A model generated the notes under the pieces. It was not told the DNA's origin, did not search any database, and worked only from the letters and a program-made list of their open reading frames with translations. A program made the position numbers and the translations under genes. From a virus (taxonomy: Duplodnaviria > Heunggongvirae > Uroviricota > Caudoviricetes), in the IMG/VR virus record IMGVR_UViG_2537561936_000015: a stretch of DNA of 45,623 nt; one strand, 5' to 3'. Each line of letters begins with the position of its first letter. Within the stretch, counting starts at the first letter, position 1. Below are positions 8,236-45,623 of this stretch, piece by piece.

Positions 8236-8239
8236 AGTC

Positions 8240-8325
8240 CAAATGTACAACCAAGGTTTTATTCCATCAAACGAAAATGGTTGTTGACTAAAAACAACCA
8301 TAGTTTTAATCTTGATTCAAATTAA
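8240..8325. promoter_or_regulatory. OR/PR-PRM region: palindromic operator ATGGTTGTT-N7-AACAACCAT (8278-8301), PR -35 TTGACT / -10 TAATCT
   Basis: Perfect 9-bp inverted repeat overlapping promoter hexamers between divergent cI and cro. Confidence 0.55.
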
Positions 8326-8339
8326 CCACGGAGGTTGTT

Positions 8340-8570: not shown

Positions 8571-8639
8571 ATTTCCATTTCACGCTCTTTAACAATAAGC
8601 AATCAACTTAACAGTCAATTCAAACTAAAGGAGTCAATT

Positions 8640-9179: not shown

Positions 9180-9265
9180 CAGGTTCAGAAATGGCGAAAG
9201 CCGGTCTGCTGGAACAGAACCGACTTTCAGGTGCAAATCGTAACACACTCATTGCGGGAGGAATT

Positions 9266-11192: not shown

Positions 11193-11259
11193 TGAAACAG
11201 GTGAGTTGAGTTCAAACTGTAGTACAATTCTCTCCAGTTTGAACAGGAAAGAATATGCT

Positions 11260-11592
11260 ATGAATCCTTATATTTATCTTGGTGGTGCAATACTTGCAGA
11301 GGTCATTGGTACAACCTTAATGAAGTTTTCAGAAGGTTTTACACGGTTATGGCCATCTGTTGGTACAATTATTTGTTATTGTGCATCATTCTGGTTATTA
11401 GCTCAGACGCTGGCTTATATTCCTACAGGGATTGCTTATGCTATCTGGTCAGGAGTCGGTATTGTCCTGATTAGCTTACTATCATGGGGATTTTTCGGCC
11501 AACGGTTGGACCTGCCAGCCATTATAGGCATGATGTTGATTTGTGCCGGTGTGTTGGTTATTAATTTATTGTCACGAAGCACACCACATTAA
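11260..11592 (+). CDS. emrE: Small multidrug resistance (SMR) efflux transporter EmrE
   Basis: 110-aa MNPYIYLGGAILAEVIGTTLMKFSEGFTRLWPSVGTIICYCASFWLLAQTLAYIP.. recognised as E. coli EmrE (DLP12 cargo gene). Confidence 0.9.
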   Translation: MNPYIYLGGAILAEVIGTTLMKFSEGFTRLWPSVGTIICYCASFWLLAQTLAYIPTGIAYAIWSGVGIVLISLLSWGFFGQRLDLPAIIGMMLICAGVLVINLLSRSTPH

Positions 11593-11847: not shown

Positions 11848-13374
11848 ATGAAAAAAGCCATAGCATATATGCGATTTTCATCACCAGGTCAGATGTCTGG
11901 TGATTCATTAAACCGCCAGAGAAGGCTTATTACTGAATGGCTAAAGGTAAATAGTGATTATTACCTTGATACCGTAACGTATGAAGATTTGGGGTTAAGC
12001 GCATTCAATGGAAAGCATGCACAATCAGGAGCTTTTTCGGAATTTTTAGATGCTATAGAACATGGTTATATATTGCCAGGGACTACATTGTTAGTTGAAA
12101 GTCTGGACAGACTTTCAAGAGAAAAAGTCGGTGAAGCGATTGAGCGTCTGAAATTGATTTTGAATCACGGTATTGATGTTATAACTCTTTGCGATAATAC
12201 AGTCTATAATATTGACTCATTGAATGAGCCATATTCATTAATAAAAGCCATACTTATAGCACAAAGGGCAAATGAAGAAAGCGAGATAAAGTCAAGTCGG
12301 GTTAAATTATCATGGAAGAAAAAACGGCAGGATGCACTGGAGTCAGGCACGATTATGACGGCGTCTTGTCCGAGATGGCTCTCATTGGATGACAAAAGAA
12401 CGGCTTTTGTTCCAGACCCCGACAGGGTGAAAACTATTGAGCTAATTTTTAAACTCAGGATGGAAAGGCGCTCATTGAATGCAATAGCCAAGTATTTAAA
12501 TGATCATGCTGTAAAGAATTTCTCAGGAAAAGAAAGTGCATGGGGACCTTCTGTAATTGAAAAATTATTAGCGAATAAAGCTCTGATAGGTATATGCGTA
12601 CCTTCATATCGTGCAAGAGGTAAAGGAATAAGTGAAATCGCTGGCTATTATCCCAGAGTCATATCAGATGATTTGTTTTACGCTGTGCAGGAAATTCGGT
12701 TGGCACCTTTTGGTATTAGCAATAGTAGCAAAAATCCTATGTTGATAAATCTACTTCGAACAGTTATGAAGTGCGAGGCTTGTGGTAATACCATGATTGT
12801 TCATGCGGTATCTGGAAGTTTGCATGGCTATTATGTTTGTCCGATGAGAAGACTGCATCGATGTGACAGGCCATCAATAAAGAGAGATTTGGTTGATTAT
12901 AATATCATTAATGAGTTGCTTTTTAATTGTAGTAAAATCCAACCAGTTGAAAACAAGAAAGATGCTAATGAAACTTTAGAGTTGAAAATTATTGAGCTCC
13001 AGATGAAAATTAATAATTTAATTGCTGCATTATCTGTTGCGCCTGAAGTTACCGCTATAGCAGAAAAAATCAGAGTATTAGATAAGGAATTACGAAGGGC
13101 TTCTGTATCATTAAAAACTTTGAAGAGTAAAGCGGTGAGTTCACTTGGTGATTTTCATGCTATTGACTTAACCAGTAAAAATGGGCGAGAGCTATGTCGT
13201 ACACTTGCCTATAAAACATTCGAAAAAATCATAATCAATACAGATAATAAAACCTGTGATATCTATTTTATGAATGGCATTGTTTTTAAACACTATCCTT
13301 TAATGAAAACAATATCTGCCCAGCAGGCGATAAGTACTCTCAAATATATGGTTGATGGTGAGGTTTATTTTTGA
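11848..13374 (+). CDS. ybcK: Large serine recombinase (DLP12 YbcK-like)
   Basis: 508-aa ORF, N-terminal resolvase-type catalytic region (AYMRFSSPGQ); AT-rich; same position as ybcK in DLP12. Confidence 0.85.
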   Translation: MKKAIAYMRFSSPGQMSGDSLNRQRRLITEWLKVNSDYYLDTVTYEDLGLSAFNGKHAQSGAFSEFLDAIEHGYILPGTTLLVESLDRLSREKVGEAIERLKLILNHGIDVITLCDNTVYNIDSLNEPYSLIKAILIAQRANEESEIKSSRVKLSWKKKRQDALESGTIMTASCPRWLSLDDKRTAFVPDPDRVKTIELIFKLRMERRSLNAIAKYLNDHAVKNFSGKESAWGPSVIEKLLANKALIGICVPSYRARGKGISEIAGYYPRVISDDLFYAVQEIRLAPFGISNSSKNPMLINLLRTVMKCEACGNTMIVHAVSGSLHGYYVCPMRRLHRCDRPSIKRDLVDYNIINELLFNCSKIQPVENKKDANETLELKIIELQMKINNLIAALSVAPEVTAIAEKIRVLDKELRRASVSLKTLKSKAVSSLGDFHAIDLTSKNGRELCRTLAYKTFEKIIINTDNKTCDIYFMNGIVFKHYPLMKTISAQQAISTLKYMVDGEVYF

Positions 13375-13983: not shown

Positions 13984-14766
13984 ATGGACAATATTAATAA
14001 ACACGGGCTCTCAAGAAGAATACCTGAGACAATAAAACGTCAGATAAGGCAAAGGTGCGGCTTTGGCTGTGTAATTTGTGGATTTGGATTTTATGATTAT
14101 GAGCATTTTAAACCTGACTTCGTTGATGCCAAAGTACATGATCCGAATGGAATGACACTTCTTTGCTCCCAATGCAATCAAAAAAGAGCTCGTGGTAGAC
14201 TTTCAGCACAGACAGTGGAAATAGCTGACAGAAATCCCAAGTGCTTACAGGCTGGTTTTGCAAATGAAATGTTTGATTTTCATAATGAGCCTATAACAGT
14301 AAAATTTGCAGGAGTGACGTTTCATAACTGTCAAAATTTGATTGTAGTCAACGAACAACCCATTCTTTCTGTGAAACCTTCACCCATACCACATGGACCG
14401 ATGCTTTTATCAGGAATTTTCTGTAATTCTATTGGTAAGGAGACTTTACTGATAGATGAAAATGAATGGAAAGCTAAATCAGACAATTGGGATGTGGAGT
14501 GTACCGGCCCGCGTATAACAATACGACGTGGGCCAGGAGAGTTTGCCCTCGTTCTAAAAATGGAACCTCCAACAGGATTGATTGTTGAGCGTCTTGATAT
14601 GTTGTATGAAGGGGTCAGGATGAAAGGAGATAAAGATCTGCTGGAAGTTTCGATTAATGGAGGTCCCTTGCACAGATGGCAATCATGCTCAATGTCAAAT
14701 TGCCATACAGGGCTTGCGATTCAGGGCGGTATTAGAGCTGCTAATGATCCTTTGTATTGCGCCTAA
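13984..14766 (+). CDS. Hypothetical protein with N-terminal HNH (His-Me finger) nuclease-like zinc-finger motif and ~190-aa unknown C-terminal domain
   Basis: 260-aa ORF; residues 24-66 RCGFGCVICG..YDYEHF..HDPNGMTLLCSQCNQKR give Cys cluster-EH-N-CxxC spacing; AT-rich codon usage; not AraC-like. Confidence 0.6.
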   Translation: MDNINKHGLSRRIPETIKRQIRQRCGFGCVICGFGFYDYEHFKPDFVDAKVHDPNGMTLLCSQCNQKRARGRLSAQTVEIADRNPKCLQAGFANEMFDFHNEPITVKFAGVTFHNCQNLIVVNEQPILSVKPSPIPHGPMLLSGIFCNSIGKETLLIDENEWKAKSDNWDVECTGPRITIRRGPGEFALVLKMEPPTGLIVERLDMLYEGVRMKGDKDLLEVSINGGPLHRWQSCSMSNCHTGLAIQGGIRAANDPLYCA

Positions 14767-14808
14767 ATCCACTAAATTGATTTTCAACAATCAACTTGCC
14801 ATAATTAA

Positions 14809-14840
14809 GTCACCGGAGTTTGAACTCCTCCGGTGACTTC
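14809..14840 (+). terminator. Hairpin GTCACCGGAG-loop-CTCCGGTGAC after the 260-aa ORF (putative terminator)
   Basis: Perfect 10-bp stem, 9-nt loop, followed by TTCTGCGC. Confidence 0.4.
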
Positions 14841-14860
14841 TGCGCTAAACGGGGACGTTT

Positions 14861-14962
14861 ATGCGCACATACAATCCAACCTCTCTTCTCCATTCACAGA
14901 TGCAGAAATGCACCTGCGATATTTTGCATCCAGCGTTTGATCTCTGCGGAGGTGAAGCGTGA
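14861..14962 (+). CDS. ylcH: Small protein YlcH-like (33 aa), translationally coupled to ybcN
   Basis: [33 protein letters not shown]; stop overlaps ybcN GTG start (GTGA). Confidence 0.5.
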
Positions 14963-17020: not shown

Positions 17021-18103
17021 TTAGAACTGGTAAACCATACCTACAGCAACGATATCATCGGTAGCAACGCCAGATGCTTTCGTGAAATCGCTCTTATCAA
17101 TCAGGTTGATTTTGTAATCAACAAAAGTGGACATATTTTTGTTGAAGTAATAGGTTGCACCTACATCAATATATTCAACCAGGTCCTGATCACCCCACGC
17201 ACCCAAGTCTTTTCCTTTAGATTGCAGGTAAGCAACGGACGGACGCAGACCGAAGTCGAACTGATATTGTGCAACTACTTCGAAGTTTTGTGCTTTGTTG
17301 GCAATATGGTTATTACCAAAAACAGTCATGTTCTGGGTTTCAGAATAGGTGGTAGCCAGATAGATGTTGTTCGCATCATATTTCAGACCAGCTGCCCATA
17401 CTTCAGCATTTTGACCAGATGCATTCAGGCTGTTGTTACCGTAGATAACCTGATTATTAGTGCGGTCAGATTTAGCATAGGTTGCACCTACACCGAATCC
17501 TTCATACTCATAAGTAGTGGAGAAACCGAAACCATCACCATTAGCTTCAGTTACGTCAGTGCGGTCATTTTTACCCTGATACTGAGCAGCAAAGTTCAGA
17601 CCATCAACCAGACCAAAGAAGTCATTGTTACGATAAGTTGCAACACCTGTGGTGCGACCAGTCATGAATACATCTGTTTGGGTCCAGGTATCGCCACCGA
17701 ATTCTGGCAGAACGTCGGTCCATGCACCAATATCGTATGCTACACCGTAGTTACGGCCATAATCGATGGAGCCGTAGTCACCGAATTTCAGGCCAGCGAA
17801 GGCAAGACGGGTTTTGTCTTTGGAGGAACCTTGAGATTCAGCGCGGTTGCCTTTGAATTCATATTCCCACTGACCGAAACCAGTCAGTTGATCGTTGATT
17901 TGGGTTTCACCTTTGAAGCCAAGACGGGCATAAGTAGTATCACCATCATCTGCATCATTAGAGGAGAAGTAGTGCTTAGCATTAACTTTCCCGTACAGAT
18001 CCAGCTTGTTACTGTCTTTATTATAAATTTCAGCTGCCTGAGCAGACATCGCCATCAGTACTGATGCAGCTACAGCAGAAATTGCCACTGTTAATTTTTT
18101 CAT
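17021..18103 (-). CDS. nmpC: Outer membrane porin (NmpC/OmpD, OmpC family), lysogenic-conversion gene, apparently intact
   Basis: 360-aa ORF with signal peptide [24 protein letters not shown]-terminal ..VAVGMVYQF typical of general porins; opposite strand between Q and lysis genes as in DLP12. Confidence 0.9.
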
Positions 18104-18439
18104 CGTGAGCCCTTTTTTTGAACTATTATTAAAAAATGATGTCACTGCGCGATAAATATTCATCTAATCAATGTGATTATTTCAAGATGTAAGTTTTGGT
18201 TTCTCATTTGATTTGTGAAGTAGATCTCTATTTTTATCTGAACTTTTTCTATCGAATCCTATTCATGGCTCTTGGCTGAATAAAAATAAATCTATTAGCC
18301 AATTTATATTAATGGCTGTTATTTATAAGTGCTCTATAATTTGAAGGTTCAATTTAAACCAGCTAAAAATAACGCTGGAAATTATTTGTTGGTTATTTGT
18401 TGAGATTTGCTTATGTATTTGTAGTGGTGTTTTCAATAC

Positions 18440-21258: not shown

Positions 21259-21270
21259 GGGCGGCGACCT
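21259..21270. other. cos: cosN cohesive-end site GGGCGGCGACCT (lambda cos); cosB/Nu1-binding region extends to ~21445
   Basis: Exact lambda left-end sequence GGGCGGCGACCTCGCGGGTTTTCGCTATTTATGAAAA.. preceding Nu1. Confidence 0.9.
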
Positions 21271-21447
21271 CGCGGGTTTTCGCTATTTATGAAAAATTTC
21301 CGGTTTAAGGCGTTTCCGTTCTTCTTCGTCATAACTTAATGTTTTTATTTAAAATACCCTCTGAAAAGAAAGGAAACGACAGGTGCTGAAAGCGAGCTTT
21401 TTGGCCTCTGTCGTTTCCTTTCTCTGTTTTTGTCCGTGGAATGAACA

Positions 21448-21967
21448 ATGGAAGTCAACAAAAAGCAGCTGGCTGACATTTTCGGTGCGAGTATCCGTAC
21501 CATTCAGAACTGGCAGGAACAGGGAATGCCCGTTCTGCGAGGCGGTGGCAAGGGTAATGAGGTGCTTTATGACTCTGCCGCCGTCATAAAATGGTATGCC
21601 AAAAGGGATGCTGAAATTGAGAACGAAAAGCTGCGCCGGGAGGTTGAAGAACTGCGGCAGGCCAGCGAGGCAGATCTCCAGCCAGGGACTATTGAGTACG
21701 AACGCCATCGACTTACGCGTGCGCAGGCCGACGCACAGGAACTGAAGAATGCCAGAGACTCCGCTGAAGTGGTGGAAACCGCATTCTGTACTTTCGTGCT
21801 GTCGCGGATCGCAGGTGAAATTGCCAGTATTCTCGACGGGATCCCCCTGTCGGTGCAGCGGCGTTTTCCGGAACTGGAAAACCGACATGTTGATTTCCTG
21901 AAACGGGATATCATCAAAGCCATGAACAAAGCAGCCGCGCTGGATGAACTGATACCGGGGTTGCTGA

Positions 21968-21993
<26 letters not shown>
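21448..21993 (+). CDS. nu1: Terminase small subunit Nu1
   Basis: 181-aa MEVNKKQLADIFGASIRTIQNWQEQGMPVLRGGGKGNEVLYDSAAVIKWYAKRDAEIENEKLRRE.. recognised as lambda Nu1. Confidence 0.97.
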
Positions 21994-25674
<3,681 letters not shown>

Positions 25675-25694
<20 letters not shown>

Positions 25695-26994
25695 TCTCCC
25701 GCATATTGCCAGCATGGCTTTTAATGAGCCGCTGATGCTTGACCCCGCCTATGCGCGGGTTTTCTTTTGTGCGCTTGCAGGCCAGCTTGGGATCAGTCGC
25801 CTGACGGATGCAGTATCCGGCGACAGCCTGACTGCCGGAGAGGCACCCGCGGCGCTGGCGTTATCCGGTGATGATGACGGACCACGACAGGCCCGCAGTT
25901 ATCAGGTCATGAACGGCATCGCCGTGCTGCCGGTGTCCGGTACGCTGGTCAGCCGGACGCGGGCGCTGCAGCCGTATTCGGGAATGACCGGTTACAACGG
26001 CATTATCGCCCGTCTGCAACAGGCTGCCAGCGATCCGATGGTGGACGGCATTCTGCTCGATATGGACACACCGGGCGGGATGGTGGCGGGAGCATTTGAC
26101 TGTGCTGACATCATCGCCCGTGTGCGTGACATAAAGCCGGTATGGGCGCTGGCCAACGACATGAACTGCAGTGCAGGTCAGCTGCTTGCCAGCGCCGCCT
26201 CCCGGCGTCTGGTCACGCAGACCGCCCGGACAGGCTCCATCGGCGTCATGATGGCTCACAGTAATTACGGCGCTGCGCTGGAGAAACAGGGCGTGGAAAT
26301 CACGCTGATTTACAGCGGCAGCCATAAGGTGGATGGCAACCCCTACAGCCATCTACCGGGTGATGTCCGGGAGACACTGCAGTCCCGGATGGATGCAACC
26401 CGCCGGATGTTTGCGCAGAAGGTGTCGGCATATACCGGCCTGTCCGTGCAGGCTGTGCTGGATACCGAGGCTGCAGTGTACAGCGGTCAGGAGGCCATTG
26501 ATGCCGGACTGGCTGATGAACTTGTCAACAGCACCGATGCGATCACCGTTATGCGTGATGCACTGGATGCACGTAAATCCCGTTTCTCAGGAGGGCGAAT
26601 GACCAAAGAGACTCAATCAACAACTGTTTCAGCCACTGCTTCGCAGGCTGACGTTACTGACGTGGTGCAAGCGACGGAGGGCGAAAACGCCAGCGCGGCG
26701 CAGCCGGACGTGAACGCGCAGATCACCGCTGCGGTTGCGGCAGAAAACAGCCGCATTATGGGGATCCTCAACTGTGAGGAGGCTCACGGACGCGAAGAAC
26801 AGGCACGTGTGCTGGCCGAAACCCCCGGTATGACCGTGGAAACGGCCCGCCGCATTCTGGCAGCTGCACCACAGAGTGCACAGGCGCGCAGTGACACTGC
26901 GCTGGATCGTCTGATGCAGGGGGCACCGGCACCACTGGCTGCAGGTAACCCGGCATCTGATGCCGTTAACGATTTGCTGAACACACCAGTGTAA
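25675..26994 (+). CDS. C: Head protease/scaffold-fusion protein C (GTG start)
   Basis: 439-aa from VTAELRNLPHIASMAFNEPLML..; overlaps B 3' end; ClpP/SppA-like fold region. Confidence 0.9.
26389..26994 (+). CDS. nu3: Scaffolding protein Nu3 (in-frame internal start within C)
   Basis: In-frame ATG at 26389 (MDATRRMFAQKVS..) sharing stop with C as in lambda. Confidence 0.65.
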   Translation: MDATRRMFAQKVSAYTGLSVQAVLDTEAAVYSGQEAIDAGLADELVNSTDAITVMRDALDARKSRFSGGRMTKETQSTTVSATASQADVTDVVQATEGENASAAQPDVNAQITAAVAAENSRIMGILNCEEAHGREEQARVLAETPGMTVETARRILAAAPQSAQARSDTALDRLMQGAPAPLAAGNPASDAVNDLLNTPV

Positions 26995-27003
26995 GGGATG
27001 TTT

Positions 27004-27336
27004 ATGACGAGCAAAGAACCCTTTACCCATTACCAGCCGCTGGGCAACAGTGACCCGGCACATACGGCAACCGCGCCCGGCGGATTGAGTGCGAAAGCGC
27101 CTGCAATGACCCCGCTGATGCCGGATACCTCCACCCGTAAGCTGGTTGCGTGGGATGGCACCACCGACGGTACTGCCGTTGGCATTCTGGCGGTTGATGC
27201 TGACCAGACCAGCACCACGCTGACGTTCTACAAGTCCGGCACGTTCCGTTATGAGGATGTGCTCTGGCCGGAGGCTGCCAGCGACGAGACGAAAAAACGG
27301 ACCGCGTTTGCCGGAACGGCAATCAGCATCGTTTAA
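27004..27336 (+). CDS. D: Capsid decoration protein D
   Basis: 110-aa [64 protein letters not shown].. Confidence 0.95.
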
Positions 27337-27391
27337 CCTTACCCTTCATCACTAAAGGCCGCCTGTGCGGCTTTTTTTACGGGATTTTTTT

Positions 27392-28417
27392 ATGTCGATG
27401 TACACAACCGCCCAGCTGCTGGCGGCAAATGAGCAGTAATTTAAGTTTGATCCGCTGTTTCTGCGTCTCTTTTTCCGTGAGAGCTATCCCTTCACCACGG
27501 AGAAAGTCTATCTCTCACAAATTCCGGGACTGGTAAACATGGCGCTGTACGTTTCGCCGATTGTTTCCGGTGAGGTTATCCGTTCCCGTGGCGGCTCCAC
27601 CTCTGAATTTACGCCGGGATATGTCAAACCCAAGCATGAGGTGAATCCGCAGATGACCCTGCGTCGCCTGCCGGATGAAGATCCGCAGAATCTGGCGGAC
27701 CCGGCTTACCGCCGCCGTCGCATCATCATGCAGAACATGCGAGACGAAGAGCTGGCCATTGCTCAGGTCGAAGAGATGCAGGCAGTTTCTGCTGTGCTTA
27801 AGGGCAAATACACCATGACCGGTGAAGCCTTCGATCCGGTTGAGGTGGATATGGGCCGCAGTGCGGCGAACAACATCACACAGTCCGGTGGTACGGAGTG
27901 GAGCAAGCGTGACAAGTCCACGTATGACCCGACCGACGATATCGAAGCCTATGCGCTGAACGCCAGCGGCGTGGTGAATATCATCGTGTTTGATCCGAAA
28001 GGCTGGGCGCTGTTCCGTTCCTTCAAAGCCGTCAAGGAGAAGCTGGATACCCGTCGCGGCTCTCATTCCGAGCTGGAGACAGCGGTAAAAGACCTGGGCG
28101 AAGCGGTGTCCTATAAGGGGATGTATGGCGATACGGCGATCGTCGTGTATTCCGGACAGTACGTGGAAAACGACGTCAAAAAGAACTTCCTGCCGGACAA
28201 CACGATGGTGCTGGGGAACACTCAGGCACGCGGTCTGCGCACCTATGGCTGCATTCAGGATGCGGACGCACAGCGCGAAGGTATTAACGCCTCTGCCCGC
28301 TACCCGAAAAACTGGGTGACCACCGGCGATCCGGCGCGTGAGTTCACCATGATTCAGTCAGCCCCGCTGATGCTGCTGGCTGATCCTGATGCGTTCGTGT
28401 CCGTACAACTGGCGTAA
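27392..28417 (+). pseudogene. E: Major capsid protein E with in-frame TAA at codon 16 (27437-27439); next in-frame ATG at 27539
   Basis: ATG at 27392 encodes MSMYTTAQLLAANEQ then TAA, then the same frame continues FKFDPLFLRLFFRESYPFTTEKVYLSQIPGLVNMALYVSP.. to 28417. Confidence 0.8.
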
Positions 28418-28458
28418 TCATGGCCCTTCGGGGCCATTTTCTCTCTGTGGAGGAGTCC

Positions 28459-28854
28459 ATGACGAAAGATGAACTGATTGCCCGTCTTCAGGTGCTGGGT
28501 GAGCAACTGAACCGTGATGTCAGCCTGACGGGGACGAAAGAAGAACTGGTGCTCCGTGTGGCAGAGCTGGAAGAGGAGCTTGATGACACGGATGACGCTG
28601 CCGGTCAGGACACATCTGTCAGCCCGGAAAATGCGCTGACCGGACATGAAAATGAGGTGGTATCAGCGCAGCCGGATACCGTGATTGATACGGCTGCTCT
28701 GGTCACGGTCGTGGCACTGGTGACGCTGCATACTGATGCACTTCACGCCACGCGGGATGAGCCTGTGGCATTTGTGCTGCCGGGAACGGCGTTTCGTGTC
28801 TCTGCCGGTGTGGCAGCCGAAATGACAGAACATGGCCTGGCCAGAATGCAATAA
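28459..28854 (+). CDS. FI: DNA packaging/head assembly protein FI
   Basis: 131-aa MTKDELIARLQVLGEQLNRDVSLTGTKEELVLRVAELEEELDDTDDAAG..; GGAGG RBS. Confidence 0.9.
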   Translation: MTKDELIARLQVLGEQLNRDVSLTGTKEELVLRVAELEEELDDTDDAAGQDTSVSPENALTGHENEVVSAQPDTVIDTAALVTVVALVTLHTDALHATRDEPVAFVLPGTAFRVSAGVAAEMTEHGLARMQ

Positions 28855-28865
28855 CGGGAGGCGCT

Positions 28866-29219
28866 GTGGCTGATTCCGATAACCTGTTCGATGCTGCCAT
28901 TGCCCGCGCCGATGAAACGATACGCGGGTACATGGGAACGTCAGCCACCATGACATCCGGTGAGCTGTCCGGTGCTGTGATACGTGGTGTTTTTGATGAC
29001 CCTGAAAATATCAGCTATGCCGGACAGGGGGTGCGCGTTGAAGGCTCCAGCCCGTCCCTGTTTGTCCGGACTGATGATGTGCGGCAGCTGCGGCGTGGAG
29101 ACACACTGACCATCGGCGAGGAAAACTTCTGGGTGGACCGGATTTCGCCGGATGATGGCGGAAGCTGTCATCTCTGGCTTGGGCGGGGCGTACCGCCTGC
29201 CGTTAACCGTCGCCGCTGA
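28866..29219 (+). CDS. FII: Head-tail connector protein FII
   Basis: 117-aa ORF recognised as lambda gpFII. Confidence 0.95.
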   Translation: MADSDNLFDAAIARADETIRGYMGTSATMTSGELSGAVIRGVFDDPENISYAGQGVRVEGSSPSLFVRTDDVRQLRRGDTLTIGEENFWVDRISPDDGGSCHLWLGRGVPPAVNRRR

Positions 29220-29230
29220 AGGGGGGATGT

Positions 29231-29809
29231 ATGGCCATAAAAGGTCTTGAGCAGGCCGTTGAAAACCTCAGTCGTATCAGCAAAACGGCGGTGCCCGGTG
29301 CGTCAGCAATGGCCATTAACCGCGTTGCGTCATCCGCGATATCGCAGTCTGCGTCACAGGTTGCCCGTGAGACAAGGGTACGCCGGAAACTGGTAAAGGA
29401 AAGGGCCAGGCTGAAAAGGGCCACGGTTAAAAATCCGCAGGCCAGAATCAGGGTTAACCGGGGGGATTTGCCCGTAATCAAGCTGGGTAACGCGCGGGTT
29501 GTCCTGTCCCGACGCAGGCGTCGTAAAAAGGGGCAGCGTTCATCCCTGAAAGGTGGCGGCAGCGTGCTTGTGGTGGGAAACCGTCGTATTCCCGGCGCGT
29601 TTATTCAGCAACTGAAAAATGGCCGCTGGCATGTCATGCAGCGTGTGGCCGGGAAAAACCGTTACCCCATTGATGTGGTGAAAATCCCGATGGCGGTGCC
29701 GCTGACCACGGCGTTTAAACAGAATATTGAGCGGATACGGCGTGAGCGTCTTCCGAAAGAGCTGGGCTATGCGCTGCAGCATCAACTGAGGATGGTAATA
29801 AAGCGATGA
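29231..29809 (+). CDS. Z: Tail completion protein Z
   Basis: 192-aa ORF recognised as lambda gpZ. Confidence 0.95.
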   Translation: MAIKGLEQAVENLSRISKTAVPGASAMAINRVASSAISQSASQVARETRVRRKLVKERARLKRATVKNPQARIRVNRGDLPVIKLGNARVVLSRRRRRKKGQRSSLKGGGSVLVVGNRRIPGAFIQQLKNGRWHVMQRVAGKNRYPIDVVKIPMAVPLTTAFKQNIERIRRERLPKELGYALQHQLRMVIKR

Positions 29810-30201
29810 AACATACTGAACTCCGTGCAGCCGTACTGGATGCACTGGAGAAGCATGACACCGGGGCGACGTTTTTTGATGGTCGCCCCGCTGTTTTTGA
29901 TGAGGCGGATTTTCCGGCAGTTGCCGTTTATCTCACCGGCGCTGAATACACGGGCGAAGAGCTGGACAGCGATACCTGGCAGGCGGAGCTGCATATCGAA
30001 GTTTTCCTGCCTGCTCAGGTACCGGATTCAGAGCTGGATTCGTGGATGGAGTCCCGGATTTATCCGGTGATGAGCGATATCCCGGCACTGTCAGATTTGC
30101 TCACCAGTATGGTGGCCAGTGGCTATGACTACCGGCGCGACGATGATGCGGGCCTGTGGAGTTCTGCCGATCTGACTTATGTCATTACCTATGAAATGTG
30201 A
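29806..30201 (+). CDS. U: Tail terminator protein U
   Basis: 131-aa ORF recognised as lambda gpU. Confidence 0.95.
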
Positions 30202-30208
30202 GGACGAT

Positions 30209-30949
30209 ATGCCTGTACCAAATCCAGCAATACCGGTGAAAGGTGCCGGGACCACCCTGTGGGTTTATAACGGGAGCGGCGACCCTTATGCGAACCCGCT
30301 TTCAGACGTTGACTGGTCGCGTCTGGCTAAAGTTAAAGACCTGACGCCCGGCGAACTGACCGCTGAGTCCTATGACGACAGTTATCTCGATGATGAAGAT
30401 GCGGACTGGACCGCGACCGGGCAGGGGCAGAAATCCGCCGGAGATACCAGCTTCACGCTGGCGTGGATGCCCGGAGAGCAGGGGCAGCAGGCGCTGCTGG
30501 CGTGGTTTAATGAAGGTGATACCCGTGCCTATAAAATCCGCTTCCCGAACGGCACGGTCGATGTGTTCCGTGGCTGGGTCAGCAGTATCGGTAAGGCGGT
30601 GACGGCGAAGGAAGTGATCACCCGTACGGTGAAGGTCACCAATGTGGGCCGTCCGTCAATGGCAGAAGATCGCAGTACGGTGACGGCGGCAACCGGTATG
30701 ACTGTGACGCCTGCCAGCTCCTCGGTGGTGAAAGGGCAGAGCACCACGCTGACCGTGGCATTCCAGCCGGAGGGCGCAACTGACAAGAGCTTCCGTGCGG
30801 TGTCAGCGGATAAAACAAAAGCCACCGTGTCGGTCAGTGGTATGACCATCACCGTGAAAGGCGTTGCTGCAGGTAAGGTCAACATTCCGGTTGTATCCGG
30901 TAATGGTGAACTTGCTGCGGTTGCAGAAATCACTGTCACCGACAGTTAA
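30209..30949 (+). CDS. V: Major tail tube protein V
   Basis: 246-aa [67 protein letters not shown].. Confidence 0.95.
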
Positions 30950-30964
30950 TCCGGAGAGTCAGCG

Positions 30965-31387
30965 ATGTTCCTGAAAACCGAATCATTTGAACATAACGGC
31001 GTGACCGTCACGCTTTCTGAACTGTCAGCCCTGCAGCGTATTGAGCATCTCGCCCTGATGAAACGGCAGGCAGAACAGGCGGAGTCAGACAGCAACCGGA
31101 AGTTTACTGTGGAAGACGCCATCAGAACCGGCGCGTTTCTGGTGGCGATGTCCCTGTGGCATAACCATCCGCAGAAGACGCAGATGCCGTCCATGAATGA
31201 AGCCGTTAAACAGATTGAGCAGGAAGTGCTTACCACCTGGCCTACAGAGGCAATTTCTCATGCTGAAAACGTGGTGTACCGGCTGTCTGGTATGTATGAG
31301 TTTGTGGTGAATAATGCCCCTGAACAGACAGAGGACGCCGGGCCCGCAGAGCCTGTTTCTGCGGGAAAGTGTTCGACGGTGAGCTGA
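30965..31387 (+). CDS. G: Tail assembly chaperone G
   Basis: 140-aa ORF recognised as lambda gpG. Confidence 0.95.
   Translation: MFLKTESFEHNGVTVTLSELSALQRIEHLALMKRQAEQAESDSNRKFTVEDAIRTGAFLVAMSLWHNHPQKTQMPSMNEAVKQIEQEVLTTWPTEAISHAENVVYRLSGMYEFVVNNAPEQTEDAGPAEPVSAGKCSTVS
31362..31368 (+). promoter_or_regulatory. Slippery heptamer GGGAAAG for programmed -1 frameshift producing G-T fusion
   Basis: G GGA AAG at the 3' end of G, with T ORF open in the -1 frame. Confidence 0.7.
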
Positions 31388-31803
31388 GTTTTGCCCTGAA
31401 ACTGGCGCGTGAGATGGGGCGACCCGACTGGCGTGCCATGCTTGCCGGGATGTCATCCACGGAGTATGCCGACTGGCACCGCTTTTACAGTACCCATTAT
31501 TTTCATGATGTTCTGCTGGATATGCACTTTTCCGGGCTGACGTACACCGTGCTCAGCCTGTTTTTCAGCGATCCGGATATGCATCCGCTGGATTTCAGTC
31601 TGCTGAACCGGCGTGAGGCTGACGAAGAGCCTGAAGATGATGTGCTGATGCAGAAAGCGGCAGGGCTTGCCGGAGGTGTCCGCTTTGGCCCGGACGGGAA
31701 TGAAGTTATCCCTACTTCCCCGGATGTGGCGGACATGACGGAGGATGACGTAATGCTGATGACAGTATCAGAAGGGATCGCAGGAGGAGTCCGGTATGGC
31801 TGA
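31369..31803 (+). CDS. T: Tail assembly protein T (expressed as G-T fusion by -1 frameshift)
   Basis: 144-aa open frame overlapping G 3' end; recognised as lambda gpT region. Confidence 0.85.
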   Translation: MFDGELSFALKLAREMGRPDWRAMLAGMSSTEYADWHRFYSTHYFHDVLLDMHFSGLTYTVLSLFFSDPDMHPLDFSLLNRREADEEPEDDVLMQKAAGLAGGVRFGPDGNEVIPTSPDVADMTEDDVMLMTVSEGIAGGVRYG

Positions 31804-34375
31804 ACCGGTAGGCGATCTGGTCGTTGATTTGAGTCTGGATGCGGCCAGATTTGACGAGCAGATGACCAGAGTCAGGCGTCATTTTTCCGGTACGGAAAGT
31901 GATGCGAAAAAAACAGCGGCAGTCGTTGAACAGTCGCTGAGCCGACAGGCGCTGGCTGCACAGAAAGCGGGGATTTCCGTCGGGCAGTATAAAGCCGCCA
32001 TGCGTATGCTGCCTGCACAGTTCACCGACGTGGCCACGCAGCTTGCAGGCGGGCAAAGTCCGTGGCTGATCCTGCTGCAACAGGGTGGTCAGGTTAAGGA
32101 CTCCTTCGGCGGGATGATCCCCATGTTCCGGGGGCTTGCCGGTGCGATCACCCTGCCGATGGTGGGGGCCACCTCGCTGGCGGTGGCGACCGGTGCGCTG
32201 GCGTATGCCTGGTATCAGGGCAACTCAACCCTGTCCGATTTCAACAAAACGCTGGTCCTTTCCGGCAATCAGGCGGGACTGACGGCAGATCGTATGCTGG
32301 TCCTGTCCAGAGCCGGGCAGGCGGCAGGGCTGACGTTTAACCAGACCAGCGAGTCACTGACGGCGCTGGTGAATGCCGGTGTGCGTGGTGGTGAGCAGTT
32401 TGAGGCGATCAGCCAGAGTGTGGCGCGTTTCTCCTCTGCATCCGGCGTGGAGGTGGACAAGGTCGCTGAAGCCTTCGGGAAGCTGACCACAGACCCGACG
32501 TCGGGACTGACAGCGATGGCACGTCAGTTCCATAACGTGACGGCGGAGCAGATTGCGTATGTTGCTCAGTTGCAGCGTTCCGGAGATGAAGCCGGGGCAT
32601 TGCAGGCGGCGAACGAGGCCGCAACGAAAGGGTTTGATGACCAGACCCGCCGCCTGAAAGAGAACATGGGCACGCTGGAGACCTGGGCAGACAGGACAGC
32701 ACGGGCATTCAAATCCATGTGGGATTCGGTGCTGGATATTGGTCGCCCGGACACTGCCCAGGGAATGCTGGAGAAAGCAGAAAAGGCTTTTGATGAGGCG
32801 GACAAAAAATGGCAGTGGTATCAGAGCCGGAGCCACCGGCGCGGTAAAACCTCAGCATTTCTTGCCAATCTCCGGGGAGCATGGGAGGACAGAGCGAATG
32901 CGCAACTTGGGCTTTCAGCCGCCACGTTGCAGGCCGATCTTGAAAAGGCCAGAGAGATGGCAGCAAAGGACTGGGCCGAGTCTGAGGCATCACGGCTGAA
33001 ATATACCGAAGAGGCGCAGAAGGCTTACGAACGGCTGCAGACGCCGCTGGAGAAATATACCGCCCGTCAGGAAGAACTGAACAAGGCACTGAAAGACGGG
33101 AAAATCCTGCAGGCGGATTACAACACGCTGATGGCGGCGGCGAAAAAGGATTATGAAGCGACGCTGAAAAAGCCGAAACAGTCCGGCGTGAAGGTGTCTG
33201 CGGGCGATCGTCAGGAAGACAGTGCTCATGCTGCCCTGCTGATGCTTCAGACAGAACTCCGGACGCTGGAGAAGCATGCCGGAGCGAATGAGAAAATCAG
33301 CCAGCAGCGCCGGGATTTGTGGAAGGCAGAAAGTCAGTTCGCGGTACTGGAGGAGGCGGCGCAACGTCGTCAGTTGTCTGCACAGGAGAAATCCCTGCTG
33401 GCGCATAAAGATGAGACGCTGGAGTACAAACGCCAGCTGGCTGCACTTGGCGACAAGGTTACGTATCAGGAGCGCCTGAACGCGCTGGCGCAGCAGGCGG
33501 ATAAATTCGCACAGCAGCAACGGGCAAAACGGGCCGCCATTGATGCGAAAAGCCGGGGGCTGACTGACCGGCAGGCAGAACGGGAAGCCACGGAACAGCG
33601 CCTGAAGGAACAGTATGGCGATAATCCGCTGGCGCTGAATAACGTCATGTCAGAGCAGAAAAAGACCTGGGCGGCTGAAGACCAGCTTCGCGGGAGCTGG
33701 ATGGCAGGCCTGAAGTCCGGCTGGAGTGAGTGGGAAGAGAGCGCCACGGACAGTATGTCGCAGGTTAAAAGTGCAGCCACGCAGACCTTTGATGGTATTG
33801 CACAGAATATGGCGGCGATGCTGACCGGCAGTGAGCAGAACTGGCGCAGCTTCACCCGTTCCGTGCTGTCCATGATGACAGAAATTCTGCTTAAGCAGGC
33901 AATGGTGGGGATTGTCGGGAGTATCGGCAGCGCCATTGGCGGTGCTGCCAGTGGTGGAGCATCCGCGTCAGGCGGTACAGCCATTCAGGCCGCTGCGGCG
34001 AAATTCCATTTTGCGACCGGGGGATTTACGGGAACCGGCGGCAAATATGAGCCAGCGGGGATTGTTCACCGTGGTGAATTTGTCTTCACGAAGGAGGCAA
34101 CCAGCCGGATTGGTGTCGGCAACCTGTACCGCCTGATGCGGGGCTATGCGGAAGGTGGTTATGTGGGCGGTGCCGGAAGTCCGGCGCAGATGCGGCGGGC
34201 TGAAGGCATTAATTTTAATCAGAACAATCACGTGGTGATTCAGAACGACGGTACGAATGGTCTGCCAGGTCCACAGATGATGAAGGCAGTGTATGACATG
34301 GCCCGCAAGGGTGCCCGTGATGAAATTCAGACACAGATGCGTGATGGTGGCCTGTTCTCCGGAGGTGGACGATGA
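31796..34375 (+). CDS. H: Tail tape-measure protein H
   Basis: 859-aa ORF MAEPVGDLVVDLSLDAARFDEQM.. recognised as lambda gpH with a divergent central segment. Confidence 0.95.
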   Translation: MAEPVGDLVVDLSLDAARFDEQMTRVRRHFSGTESDAKKTAAVVEQSLSRQALAAQKAGISVGQYKAAMRMLPAQFTDVATQLAGGQSPWLILLQQGGQVKDSFGGMIPMFRGLAGAITLPMVGATSLAVATGALAYAWYQGNSTLSDFNKTLVLSGNQAGLTADRMLVLSRAGQAAGLTFNQTSESLTALVNAGVRGGEQFEAISQSVARFSSASGVEVDKVAEAFGKLTTDPTSGLTAMARQFHNVTAEQIAYVAQLQRSGDEAGALQAANEAATKGFDDQTRRLKENMGTLETWADRTARAFKSMWDSVLDIGRPDTAQGMLEKAEKAFDEADKKWQWYQSRSHRRGKTSAFLANLRGAWEDRANAQLGLSAATLQADLEKAREMAAKDWAESEASRLKYTEEAQKAYERLQTPLEKYTARQEELNKALKDGKILQADYNTLMAAAKKDYEATLKKPKQSGVKVSAGDRQEDSAHAALLMLQTELRTLEKHAGANEKISQQRRDLWKAESQFAVLEEAAQRRQLSAQEKSLLAHKDETLEYKRQLAALGDKVTYQERLNALAQQADKFAQQQRAKRAAIDAKSRGLTDRQAEREATEQRLKEQYGDNPLALNNVMSEQKKTWAAEDQLRGSWMAGLKSGWSEWEESATDSMSQVKSAATQTFDGIAQNMAAMLTGSEQNWRSFTRSVLSMMTEILLKQAMVGIVGSIGSAIGGAASGGASASGGTAIQAAAAKFHFATGGFTGTGGKYEPAGIVHRGEFVFTKEATSRIGVGNLYRLMRGYAEGGYVGGAGSPAQMRRAEGINFNQNNHVVIQNDGTNGLPGPQMMKAVYDMARKGARDEIQTQMRDGGLFSGGGR

Positions 34376-35404: not shown

Positions 35405-36148
35405 ATGACACAGACAGAATCAGCGATTCTGGCGCACGCCCGGCGATGTGCGCCAGCGGAGTCGTGCGGCTTCGTGGTAAGCACGCCGGAGGGGGAAAGA
35501 TATTTTCCCTGCGTGAATATTTCCGGTGAGCCGGAGGCGTATTTCCGTATGTCGCCGGAAGACTGGCTGCAGGCAGAAATGCAGGGTGAGATTGTGGCGC
35601 TGGTCCACAGCCACCCCGGTGGTCTGCCCTGGCTGAGTGAGGCCGACCGGCGGCTGCAGGTGCAGAGTGATTTGCCGTGGTGGCTGGTCTGCCGGGGGAC
35701 GATTCATAAGTTCCGCTGTGTGCCGCATCTCACCGGGCGGCGCTTTGAGCACGGTGTGACGGACTGTTACACACTGTTCCGGGATGCTTATCATCTTGCA
35801 GGTATCGATTTGCCGGATTTTTACCGACATGATGACTGGTGGAAATCAGGTCAGAATCTCTATCTGGATAATCTGGAGGCCACAGGGCTGTATCAGGTGC
35901 CGTTGTCATCAGCACAACCGGGCGATGTGCTGCTGTGCTGCTTTGGTTCATCGGTGCCGAATCATGCCGCCATTTACTGTGGTGACGGCGAGCTGCTGCA
36001 CCATATTCCTGAACAACTGAGCAAACGAGAGAGGTATACCGACAAATGGCAGCGACGCACACACTCCCTCTGGCGTCACCAGGCATGGCACGTATCTGCC
36101 TTTACGGGGATTTACAACGATTTGGCCGCCGCATCGATCTGCGTGTGA
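35405..36148 (+). CDS. K: Tail tip assembly protein K (JAB/MPN + NlpC/P60 domains)
   Basis: 247-aa ORF with JAMM motif (ALVHSHPGG..SEAD) and NlpC/P60 Cys/His (DCYTLF, NHAAIY). Confidence 0.85.
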   Translation: MTQTESAILAHARRCAPAESCGFVVSTPEGERYFPCVNISGEPEAYFRMSPEDWLQAEMQGEIVALVHSHPGGLPWLSEADRRLQVQSDLPWWLVCRGTIHKFRCVPHLTGRRFEHGVTDCYTLFRDAYHLAGIDLPDFYRHDDWWKSGQNLYLDNLEATGLYQVPLSSAQPGDVLLCCFGSSVPNHAAIYCGDGELLHHIPEQLSKRERYTDKWQRRTHSLWRHQAWHVSAFTGIYNDLAAASICV

Positions 36149-36685
36149 AAACGGGGGCCGAAGCCATCCGGGCGCTGGCCATGCAGATCCCGGCGTTTCG
36201 TCAGAAGCTGAGCGACGGCTGGTATCAGGTACGCATTGCCGGGCGTGATACAGGTGAAACGGAATTATCAGCCCGTTTCATGAACTCTGGCTGATGGTGC
36301 TGTGATCCATATCGTGCCGCGTCTGGCAGGAGCCAAAAGTGGCGGTGTGTTTCAGGCTGTGCTGGGGGCGGCTGTTATGGCGGTTGCTATATGGATGCCG
36401 GGGGTAGGAATTATGGCGAGTAATCTGCTGTTTTCTCTCGGTGCCAGTATGACGCTTGGCGGTGTTGCACAGATGCTGGCCCCTAAACCCAAAACCCCCC
36501 GCACACAGACAACGGATAACGGCAAACAGAACACCTATTTTTCTTCACTGGATAACATGGTTGCCCAGGGCAATGTTCTGCCTGTTCTGTACGGTGAAAT
36601 GCGCGTGGGGTCACGCGTGGTTTCTCAGGAGATCAGCACGGCAGACGAAGGGGATGGTGGTCAGGTTGTGGTGATTGGTCGCTGA
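36046..36685 (+). pseudogene. I: Tail tip assembly protein I, split into two reading frames (36046-36294 and 36302-36685)
   Basis: N-terminal part (MAATHTLPLASPGMARICLYGDLQRFGRRIDLRVKTG..) ends at TGA 36292-36294; C-terminal part (..AVIHIVPRLAGAKSGG..QVVVIGR) is in the +1 frame; span is 640 nt, not a multiple of 3. Confidence 0.6.
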
Positions 36686-40957: not shown

Positions 40958-43870
40958 ATGGCAGTACTGATTTCAGGTGTACTGAAAGACGGTGCAGGTA
41001 AGCCGATACAAAACTGCACCATTCAGCTAAAGGCCAGGCGCAACAGCACCACGGTGGTGGTGAACACAGTGGCCTCAGAAAATCCGGATGAAGCCGGGCG
41101 TTATACAATGGACGTCGAGTATGGTCAGTACAGCGTCAGTCTGTTGGTGGAGGGGTTCCCGCCGTCACACGCCGGGATTATCACCGTATATGAGGACTCA
41201 AAGCCTGGCACACTGAATGATTTCCTCGGTGCAATGACGGAGGATGATGCCCGTCCGGAGGCACTGCGCCGTTTTGAGCTGATGGTGGAAGAGGTGGCGC
41301 GTAACGCCTCCGCGGTGGCACAGAACACGGCAGCCGCGAAGAAGTCAGCCAGCGATGCCAGCACATCAGCCCGTGAGGCGGCAACCCGTGCGACTGATGC
41401 TGCAGGCTCAGCACGTGCCGCCAGCACGTCAGCCGGACAGGCCGCGTCGTCGGCTCAGTCAGCGTCTTCCAGCGCAGGAACGGCATCGACAAAGGCCAGT
41501 GAAGCAGCGAAAAGTGCTGCTGCTGCAGAGTCATCAAAAAGCGCGGCAGCCACCAGTGCCGGTGCGGCGAAAACGTCAGAAACGAATGCTGCAGCGTCAC
41601 AAAAATCTGCAGCCGCTTCTGCATCCACCGCGACCATGAAGGCGTCAGAAGCTGCCACCTCGGCACGGGATGCGGCTGCCTCAAAAGAGGCAGCAAAATC
41701 ATCAGAAACGAATGCATCATCAAGTGCCAGTAGTGCAGCTTCCTCGGCAACGGCGGCAGGCAATTCCGCGAAGACGGCAAAGACGGCTGAGACAAACGCT
41801 AAGTCTTCTGAAACGGCAGCAGCACAGAGTGCCTCCGCAGCAGCGGGCTCAAAAACAGCGGCTGCATCGTCGGCCAGTGCCGCGTCAACAAGTGCCGGGC
41901 AGGCCTCAGCCAGTGCCACCGCCGCCGGAAAATCGGCAGAAAGCGCCGCATCATCCGCTTCAACAGCCACAACGAAGGCTGGCGAAGCCACTGAGCAAGC
42001 CACTGCAGCAGCGAGGTCTGCTTCTGCAGCAAAAACCTCTGAAACAAATGCAAAGACTTCAGCAGACAATGCTGCTTCCTCTAAGGCGGCAGCCGCATCG
42101 TCCGCTGGTTCAGCGGCGTCATCGGCATCATCTGCGTCTGCTTCAAAAGATGAGGCGACCAGACAAGCGTCAGCAGCGAAAGGTAGTGCCACGACAGCAA
42201 CAACGAAAGCATCAGAGGCGGCAGGCAGTGCGACGGCTGCATCTCAGAGCAAAGTTGCTGCTGAATCCGCGGCAACGCGTGCCGAAACAGCGGCAAAACG
42301 GGCAGAGGATATTGCTGATGCCGTATCTCTGGAAGATGCGAGCACGACGAAAAAAGGTGTGGTTCAGCTCAGCAGCGCGACCAACAGCACTTCCGAGTCA
42401 CTGGCGGCAACACCAAAGGCAGTAAAGGCAGCATATGATCTTGCTAACGCAAAATATACCGCTCAGGACGCCACGACGGCACGAAAAGGGGTAGTTCAGC
42501 TCAGTAGCGCCACTAACAGCCCGTCTGAAACGCTGGCTGCGACACCAAAAGCGGTTAAGGCGGTAATGGATGAAACGAACAAGAAAGCGCCTTTAAACAG
42601 TCCTGCGCTGACCGGAACGCCAACAACGCCAACTGCGCCAAAAGGGACTAATAATACTCAGATCGCAAGCACGGCTTATGTGATGGCCGCGATTGCCGCA
42701 CTTGTAGACTCGTCGCCTGACGCACTGAATACGCTGAACGAGCTGGCGGCGGCGCTGGGAAACGACCCGAATTTTGCGACCACCATGACTAACGCGCTTG
42801 CGGGTAAGCAACCGAAAGATGCCACCCTGACGGCGCTGGCCGGGCTTGCTACTGCGGCAGACAGGTTTCCGTATTTTACGGGGAATGATGTCGCCAGCCT
42901 GGCAACCCTGACAAAAGTCGGGCGGGATATTCTTGCGAAATCGACCGTTGCCGCTGTTATCGAATACCTCGGTTTACAGGAAACGGTAAACAAGGCTGGT
43001 AACGCCGTTCAGCGTTCCGGTGATAAAATGACCGGAGAACTGAAAATTGGCACGGTGAATGCGCTGCGAATTTTCAATGATGCCTTCGGTCTTATTTTCC
43101 GTCGTTCAGAAGATTTTCTTCATTTCATTCCGACGGCTGAAGGACAAGGCGAAAACGGTGATATCGGCCCATTAAGGCCATTCGCTATAAATCTGAGAAC
43201 AGGTGCTATATCTGTCAGCCACGGGGCCAAAATTGAAGGAGGTCTAGCTATTGGAGCTACTGATAACGCACTGGGTGAAAACTCCATTGTTCTGGGAGAT
43301 AACGACACCGGATTTAGGCAAGATGGAGATGGTTTTATTAGCTTCTTTTCAAATGGTTCGCGCATAGGACATATTGATGAGTTAGGATTACATATTTATA
43401 AAGATATTGAATCTAATGGCAGCAATTTTAGATTAAAAGGTAATTACCGCCACCACATTACATTCGCCAACGAAGACGGAAGTATTCGTATGTTTTTGTG
43501 GAAAGATAAAGATGGTGATGGTGTTCATATTAATAATGGTTCAAGCGGTGGCGGTGATTTCGTTTTTAAAACAGATGGGGGATTTGCGCTGGGAAGTGGT
43601 GCGCAAGTTGCGTCTAATGGCGATATTTATGGTTCAGTGTGGGAAAACAACTGGTTAAGCGCATGGCTGCATAATCATGTCGTTCGGGATATTCGTCTTG
43701 GCAGCATTGAATATAAAAACGTATGGCGCGACTCCGGCTTTGGCGATGCGTCAGGTTATGTTTTAACAGCCGCAATTAACAGCAATGCGGATGATATTGT
43801 CGACACTGTTGCCAGAAGGCCAATTCAGAAATTGATTGGGGGAATATGGTATAACGTGGGGAGTGTTTAA
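40958..43870 (+). CDS. stf: Side tail fibre protein Stf with Ala/Ser-rich repeat shaft and exchangeable C-terminal tip
   Basis: 970-aa from [49 protein letters not shown].. recognised as lambda Stf N-terminus; C-terminal ~300 aa AT-rich and non-lambda. Confidence 0.9.
42957..42982. promoter_or_regulatory. Gin/Pin/Cin-type DNA invertase crossover site (gix-like) inside stf
   Basis: TTATCGAATACCTCGGTTTACAGGAA; reverse complement matches Mu gix (TTCCTGTAAACCGAGGTTTTGGATAA, from memory) at 23 of 26 positions; encodes ..IEYLGLQE.. Confidence 0.6.
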
Positions 43871-43871
43871 G

Positions 43872-44399
43872 ATGATGCACCTGAAAAATATTAAGGCCGG
43901 GAATCCGAAAACAAAAGAGCAATACCAGCTAACTAAAAAAGCGGGCGTGGTATGGCTCTTTTGCGAAGATGGCAAAAACTGGTATGAGGAACAAAAGAAT
44001 TTTCAGCCAGACACCATAAAAATTGCTTACGATGAGAACAACATCATCGTTGCTGTCAGTAAAGACGTTTCAACTATTAATCCTGAAGGGCTAAGCATAG
44101 TTGAAGTTCCTGATATTACGGCAAATCGTCGCGCAGACAATAACGGAAAATGGATGTTTCTGGATGGTAAAGTAGTAAAGAGGGAATATACAGAACAGGA
44201 ACTGCAACAACAGGCCGAATCACAAAAGGCCGCATTGCTTTCCGAAGCTGAATCAGTCATCCAGCCGCTGGAACGCGCTGTCAGGCTGAATATGGCAACA
44301 GACGAGGAACGCACACGACTGGAAGCATGGGAACGCTACAGTGTTCTGGTCAGCCGTGTGGATACGGCAAATCCTGAATGGCCACAAAAGCCTGAATAA
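43872..44399 (+). CDS. tfa: Tail fibre assembly protein Tfa
   Basis: 175-aa [48 protein letters not shown].. Confidence 0.85.
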
Positions 44400-44405
44400 A
44401 AATTA

Positions 44406-44422
44406 AGGCCCGATAGCGGGCC
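44406..44422. terminator. Hairpin AGGCCCG-atag-CGGGCCT between convergent tfa genes (putative bidirectional terminator)
   Basis: 7-bp perfect stem between stop codons at 44399 and 44428. Confidence 0.4.
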
Positions 44423-44427
44423 TCGTC

Positions 44428-44961
44428 TCATTCAGGTTGTTCGGGAAATGTTACTGGCAGGCTGGAGGTGTCTGTAGATTCGACTTTCTGCGCATAGAGC
44501 ATCCACTCGGTTAATTTTTGTTTATTCTCGTCGGAAATGATGCCCAGCCGTAGCTGTGAGTCCCATAGCTGGGTTTTATCCCTGACAAGTTGCAACAGGC
44601 TTTGCTTTTCATTCTCTGCCTGCTGCCTCTGTTCCTCTTCGGTATAAGTTCGCTTTATCACTACGCCATCTTTGAACATCCATTTACCCGAAATATCAGC
44701 CCGGCGATTTGCTGTAATATCAGGTAATTCAACGACGCTTGCGCCTTCCGGATTAATTGCTGAAACATCCTTTTCAATACAAATAATAACGCCGTTATGG
44801 TCATAGGCCATTTTCAATGTGTCTGGCCGGAAATTCTTTTGTTCCTCATACCAGTTTTTTCCATTGTCTGAATAAAGCCATTTGATGTTAAATTGCTTTG
44901 TTAGCTGGTATTGCTCTTTTGTTTTAGGATTGCCAGCAGTAATGTTTTTTAAGTGCATCAT
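44428..44961 (-). CDS. Alternative tail fibre assembly protein Tfa' (inverted orientation)
   Basis: 177-aa [48 protein letters not shown].., paralogous to tfa at 43872-44399 on the opposite strand. Confidence 0.8.
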   Translation of the reverse strand: MMHLKNITAGNPKTKEQYQLTKQFNIKWLYSDNGKNWYEEQKNFRPDTLKMAYDHNGVIICIEKDVSAINPEGASVVELPDITANRRADISGKWMFKDGVVIKRTYTEEEQRQQAENEKQSLLQLVRDKTQLWDSQLRLGIISDENKQKLTEWMLYAQKVESTDTSSLPVTFPEQPE

Positions 44962-44963
44962 AA

Positions 44964-45623
44964 TTAAATACTCCCTGCGTTATACCACGTTCCATTAATG
45001 CAATACTGAATTGGCCTTGCCTGAGTTGTATCAATTAATTCATCACGGTTTCCGTTAACTGAACCCGTAACGACATAACCTGACCTGTCAGACCAGCCGG
45101 GACCATTCCATGTCTGAACAGATGACAGACCGCCCAGACGAATACCTGTAATAAACTTTGAGTTACATTCCGCTTTGGTATATGCACCAACATCCCCCGC
45201 AGAGGGTTTGTAGGTTGTGGTGTAAAACGCTGACCAGTTATCTTCAAAGCCATAACCATCACGCGCTGAACGATAAAGGATACCGCCGTTCCTGTAATTC
45301 ACACGGAACTGTACGGCAGGGCAACTCCCCGTATTCATATTGAAGTGGAGTATTAATGCTGTTGCGCCTTTGATATCTGCATCATAAACACCGCTATTCC
45401 AGTTCCAGCCAACAGCTTTATCATTTGCAACCCTGCTTCCTGTTTGCCCTAAAGCAAATGCAGGCTGCTGGTTTTTCGTGTTGTAGTCTCGTCGCCAGCC
45501 AGGAGCATAAGCATCACCATGATTAATATAGGTGAATTGAGCGTTAGTAATTCCGCCGCCGCTGGACGTACTCGCCGTAGTAACGCGTATGGTCATTGCG
45601 CCGCGAGTGCCAATAACTTCCAC
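44964..45623 (-). CDS. Alternative side tail fibre C-terminal domain (inverted orientation; 5' end beyond window)
   Basis: Open to window edge; C-terminus ..RDELIDTTQARPIQYCINGTWYNAGSI parallels stf C-terminus ..[26 protein letters not shown]. Confidence 0.75.
   Translation of the reverse strand: MEVIGTRGAMTIRVTTASTSSGGGITNAQFTYINHGDAYAPGWRRDYNTKNQQPAFALGQTGSRVANDKAVGWNWNSGVYDADIKGATALILHFNMNTGSCPAVQFRVNYRNGGILYRSARDGYGFEDNWSAFYTTTYKPSAGDVGAYTKAECNSKFITGIRLGGLSSVQTWNGPGWSDRSGYVVTGSVNGNRDELIDTTQARPIQYCINGTWYNAGSI

Follow-up and report, generated by a model that had tools for sequence, protein, structure and literature searches.

We are all but certain that the heptamer G GGA AAG near the 3′ end of gene G is a lambda-type G/GT programmed −1 ribosomal frameshift site of the tail assembly chaperones, carried by a lambda-like prophage at attλ. 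The site, its phase, the two reading frames flanking it, the family membership of their products, the order of the surrounding genes, and the near-identity to lambda are all directly visible in the window, by which we mean the whole 45,623-nucleotide stretch of DNA analysed. The features of the G-T region are as follows:

31363-31369, + strand: slippery heptamer G GGA AAG, assigned as a −1 programmed ribosomal frameshift site on its sequence, phase, and alignment with lambda
30965..31387, + strand: gene G, encoding gpG, tail assembly chaperone, 140 aa (zero-frame ORF, homology)
31369..31803, + strand: T reading frame, −1 relative to G, 144 codons plus stop, C-terminal half of gpGT (ORF, homology)
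30965..31803, + strand: gpGT fusion, join 30965..31369 / 31369..31803, 279 aa (conceptual translation)

The codons of the G frame at the heptamer are GCG (31361-63), GGA (31364-66), and AAG (31367-69), corresponding to the X XXY YYZ phase, and the sequence across the site, divided according to the same frame, reads cct gtt tct gcG GGA AAG tgt tcg acg gtg agc tga. Downstream of the heptamer, the G frame contains 5 sense codons followed by a TGA stop at 31385-87, so that 18 nt separate the heptamer end from the last base of the stop codon. The first −1 codon after the slip is GTG at 31369, from which the frame is open for 144 codons up to a TGA at 31801-31803, and on the 5′ side of the heptamer the −1 frame is open for 39 nt only (stop at 31321-23). 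Conceptual translation of the joined frames yields the fusion junction ...PVSAGK/VFDGELSF..., and the peptide spanning this junction is ...PVSAGKVFDGELSFALK. The original prediction, which placed a slippery G GGA AAG at the end of G with the T frame open in −1 as far as 31803, thus described the arrangement correctly, including the end of the T frame, and the heptamer that it named is present and in phase; its coordinates for the heptamer (31362-31368), however, were one base off, because these positions read CGGGAAA.

GGGAAAG is found in a single copy within the G-T region. In the window as a whole, the bare motif occurs 10 times on the two strands, compared with 5.2±2.1 expected, and this count is not significant, so the argument for the site has to come from its phase, ORF configuration, and alignment. 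For the second of these, we required a heptamer to be preceded by no fewer than 100 open zero-frame codons, to be followed within 15 codons by a stop in that frame, and to have no fewer than 100 open −1 codons after it. Among the 188 heptamers of the X XXY YYZ type present on the two strands of the window, the one at 31363-31369 alone has this configuration.

The products of both frames belong to the expected families. The gpG protein matches PF06894 (206.9 bits, E=9e-62) and the equivalog TIGR01674 (219.2 bits, E=1.5e-65), whereas the T product matches PF06223 (54.2 bits) and the NCBIfam equivalog TIGR01715 (189.1 bits), and the two Pfam domains are detected together in the single conceptual 279-aa gpGT. 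The G/T pair is located between the tail tube and tape measure genes, a V–G/T–H order identical to that of lambda, with the following neighbours:

30209..30949, + strand: gene V, major tail tube protein, upstream neighbour (tblastn against lambda V, 96.7% over 246 aa, without internal stop)
31796..34375, + strand: gene H, tape measure protein, 859 aa, downstream neighbour (tblastn against lambda H, 89.5%, 6-aa insertion, intact ORF)

The last 8 nt of T also form the start of gene H, an overlap shared with lambda. Consistent with the further proposal that the tail assembly module is otherwise intact, genes Z, U, V, G, T, H, M, L, K, and J are all uninterrupted ORFs. Gene K (35405-36148) encodes 247 aa with JAB/MPN and NlpC/P60 domains and begins 6 nt past L, as in PhiR30_1; in RefSeq lambda, K comprises 199 aa from a later start (14276-14875) and I comprises 223 aa overlapping K by 103 nt, and the classical lambda K and I starts look mis-set relative to the newer annotations.

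Comparison with lambda places the heptamer precisely. Positions 30965-31803 of the window align without gaps to lambda 9711-10549, with 832 of the 839 positions identical, and the heptamers of the window and of lambda (10109-10115) occupy the same alignment columns, 399-405. The proposed match to the tail-chaperone frameshift of lambda, for which misalignment of the two heptamers had been named as the refuting outcome, is therefore borne out. The gpG protein is 100% identical to lambda G, and the T product is identical to lambda T at 143 of 144 positions; the G-T region has a single amino-acid change, which replaces Ala with Thr in T (31714). The remaining 6 of the 7 base differences are silent and fall at third codon positions, 4 of them in the G frame 5′ of the site and 2 in the T frame 3′ of it, a pattern indicating that both frames are read as proposed. 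The base differences from lambda closest to the heptamer on either side are at 31246 and 31614, and the intervening segment (31247-31613; about 360 nt, reaching ~116 nt 5′ and ~244 nt 3′ of the heptamer) is base-for-base that of lambda, so that any local cis element is also identical.

The G-T region matches 164 phage records, from which we chose six diverse phages and compared their shift sites together with that of lambda. In all seven, the distance from the shift site to the last base of the G stop is 18 nt, and the heptamers are distributed as follows:

GGGAAAG: lambda and PhiR12_1 (about 78% identical in DNA)
AAAAAAG: VT1-Sakai
GGAAAAG: N15, Flotzy, mEp213, and LLS

In the records of N15 and LLS, the site is annotated as a −1 frameshift, with a joined CDS in the case of LLS. 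The T frame opens merely 9-57 nt 5′ of the shift site across the seven phages. These data bear on the reading of T as an independent gene initiated at GTG 31369, under which the heptamer would be incidental. A GTG-initiated 144-aa ORF does exist at 31369-31803, and a stand-alone T CDS starting from the homologous GTG is annotated in RefSeq lambda, PhiR30_1, and E. coli GPEC60-12-649. The GTG, however, has no Shine-Dalgarno sequence at a usable spacing, the only purine-rich stretch being the heptamer itself, 2 nt away. Furthermore, in 5 of the 7 phages (VT1-Sakai, N15, Flotzy, mEp213, and LLS), the −1 frame begins after the slip with an Ala codon (GCA or GCC) and there is no start codon at this position, although the T protein is conserved from that codon onward; in these five, the T frame opens 12-57 nt upstream. 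The GTG shared by lambda and the window is thus probably coincidental. In addition, gpGT is reported as a frameshift fusion product in PMC3296357 and PMC5009743. We accordingly rejected independent initiation of T on comparative grounds, namely, the Ala codon in the five relatives, and regard it as very improbable.

How the site would operate can be outlined from lambda, and the slip, its frequency, and the chaperone function are ascribed to the window by analogy with the lambda experiments in the literature. The slippery sequence of lambda is GGGAAAG, at which about 96% of ribosomes keep the frame to produce gpG and ~4% slip by −1 to produce gpGT; a single tRNA-Lys(UUU) reads both AAG and AAA, and the modification of its U34 tunes the rate of the shift (PMC3296357). 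PMC5009743, citing Levin 1993 and Xu 2004/2013/2014, puts the gpG:gpGT ratio at roughly 30:1 and describes it as crucial for tail assembly; it also states that the G part of gpG and gpGT binds the tape measure protein gpH, that the T part binds the tube protein gpV, and that the mature tail is without gpG and gpGT. By the same scheme, most ribosomes translating the window's G-T region would read ...GCG GGA AAG TGT TCG ACG GTG AGC TGA, ending with the 140-aa gpG. In the few others (about 4% in lambda), a −1 slip would occur with tRNA-Gly on GGA and tRNA-Lys (anticodon mnm5s2UUU) on AAG, whereupon the two tRNAs would re-pair with GGG and AAA and translation would resume as GTG TTC GAC... in the T frame, giving the 279-aa gpGT. 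Many gpG and few gpGT molecules would then coat gpH via their common G part, and the T part of gpGT would recruit gpV, such that the tube could polymerise around gpH to the correct length, with both chaperones expected to be absent from the finished tail.

No extra stimulator backs the frameshift call. The downstream segment 31370-31470 folds at −38.7 kcal/mol, compared with −33.8±3.4 kcal/mol for shuffled versions, and the difference is not significant (z = −1.45; 13 of 200 shuffles fold equally well). An Rfam scan of positions 30900-31900 revealed no family, the only hit being a chance snoRNA match (E=0.52). We also considered an upstream Shine-Dalgarno stimulator of the kind known from dnaX, and rejected the sole GAGGA-like stretch (31331-31335, located by eye) as too distant, at about 27 nt upstream of the heptamer. 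The missing significant structure fits a low-efficiency shift driven mainly by the heptamer. Transcriptional slippage is supported by A runs of about 7-9 (reviewed in PMC5009743), far above the three A's of the run in the heptamer. Chance occurrence of the heptamer, or a fusion made by RNA polymerase slippage at this A run and not by the ribosome, would agree with a motif count little above expectation and with the negative folding and Rfam results, but is exceedingly unlikely given that the position and phase of the heptamer are kept across phages whose flanks have diverged to 68-78% identity, that its ORF configuration is unique among the 188 heptamers, and that modification of U34 in tRNA-Lys, an influence exerted at the ribosome, alters the lambda shift (PMC3296357).

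Local BLAST against the full lambda genome identified the window as a lambda-like E. coli prophage at attλ with ybhC on the left flank. Homology to the att core begins at window position 1331 (lambda 27724), cos is at 21258/21259, window positions 21259-32781 are 97.3% identical to lambda 1-11527, and the lambda head and tail proteins, Nu1 to J, align collinearly. The immunity region differs from that of lambda: it encodes a 250-aa HTH and S24 peptidase repressor (7546-8301, − strand) and a YdaT-family protein (8640-9179), and BLAST against lambda returned no DNA similarity between about 6750 and 9729. Besides a lambda-type tyrosine integrase (1419-2489), the window encodes a 508-aa large serine recombinase (11848-13374; Resolvase, Recombinase, and Zn_ribbon_recom domains) in the nin/late-regulatory region, with no lambda counterpart. 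An OmpC/NmpC-type porin cargo gene (17021-18163, − strand; Porin_1, 510 bits) lies directly 5′ of the lysis genes, an arrangement also present in DLP12-like prophages and in the prophage of GPEC60-12-649. The right end carries an inverted duplication (43816-45623), in which the C-terminus of stf and tfa (+ strand, up to 44399) are opposed on the − strand by another tfa (44428-44961) and another tail-fibre C-terminal segment with a gp37_C domain (44964-45623), with inverted repeats of 55-267 nt. The layout of this duplication suggests a host-range cassette that can invert, of the Mu G, P1 C, or e14 type; no invertase gene for it was found within the window.

An intact tail module does not make the phage functional, since codon 16 of the head gene E is TAA. 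The major capsid gene E (27392-28417) is otherwise 97.7% identical to lambda E, and the change, AAA→TAA at 27437-27439 (E K16*), went unmentioned in the original prediction. Sequencing error was rejected as its source: the same TAA is found in the 99.6%-identical prophage of E. coli GPEC60-12-649, for which PGAP annotated a shortened capsid CDS and whose G-T segment is identical to that of the window. The lesion is therefore real and inherited, and common to at least two independently sequenced E. coli strains. The disruption of gene I, by contrast, had been recognised from the outset and is confirmed here: the first 49 codons (36145-36291, PF06805) run into a stop, the remainder lies in another frame (36302-36685), and the gene is 2 nt shorter than its closest intact allele, that of E. 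coli GF161 (98.9% identical; 663 nt vs 661 nt in the window, with the difference at about 36280). The break (near 36280-36300) falls inside a mosaic segment that has diverged from lambda and also lacks 21 and 9 nt in frame. This shorter allele is absent from 5,426 complete E. coli genomes, so that the lesion is either private to the source or an assembly error.

Despite the intact G/GT site, the prophage is probably defective, with its head affected by the E lesion, and, given the E nonsense codon and the frame-broken I, the site may have ceased to contribute to the making of virions in its host. We considered whether a head-less, tail-only function, such as a tailocin-like particle, has been retained with the frameshift site under selection for it, and find this highly doubtful. 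Recent decay of an ordinary prophage is a far more likely explanation of the E and I lesions and is favoured because all other head genes are intact.

The G/GT site of the window is real but ordinary; it represents an already known system, with nothing novel about it. Because the heptamer and about 360 nt of surrounding sequence do not differ from lambda, the site offers no new insight into how frameshifting works. For annotation, gpG and a joined gpGT CDS (30965..31369, 31369..31803) should replace the stand-alone T gene, and the intact site indicates that the tail-chaperone module has not decayed. As a by-product, the analysis points to a prophage that is probably defective through E K16* together with the broken gene I.

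Among known systems, the closest is the lambda G/G-T frameshift itself (Levin, Hendrix & Casjens 1993; Xu, Hendrix & Duda 2004, 2013, 2014), with which the window shares the heptamer, its phase, the distance to the G stop, the lengths of G and T, and the V–G/T–H order, differing by 7 base substitutions in 839 nt and in being carried by a prophage that has both E K16* and a disrupted frame in I. Genes 14/15 of N15, G/T of VT1-Sakai, and the corresponding genes of the phi80-like mEp213 and of LLS carry the site equally far from the stop codon of the preceding chaperone ORF and, likewise, a T-family product encoded in a −1 ORF preceding the tape measure gene. These relatives use A AAA AAG or GGAAAAG and have T parts of 113-117 codons, whereas the window has the lambda-type heptamer G GGA AAG and a full-length lambda-type T. 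Outside the tailed phages, E. coli dnaX (tau/gamma) also relies on a −1 slip at an XXXAAAG-type heptamer with a single tRNA-Lys for AAA and AAG. At the dnaX site, however, A AAA AAG is flanked by a Shine-Dalgarno-like element on its 5′ side and a stem-loop on its 3′ side, shifting occurs at about 50%, and the product is truncated; in the window, there is no significant structure and no Shine-Dalgarno-like element at 10-14 nt, and the shift, whose efficiency in lambda is about 4%, would yield an extended fusion.
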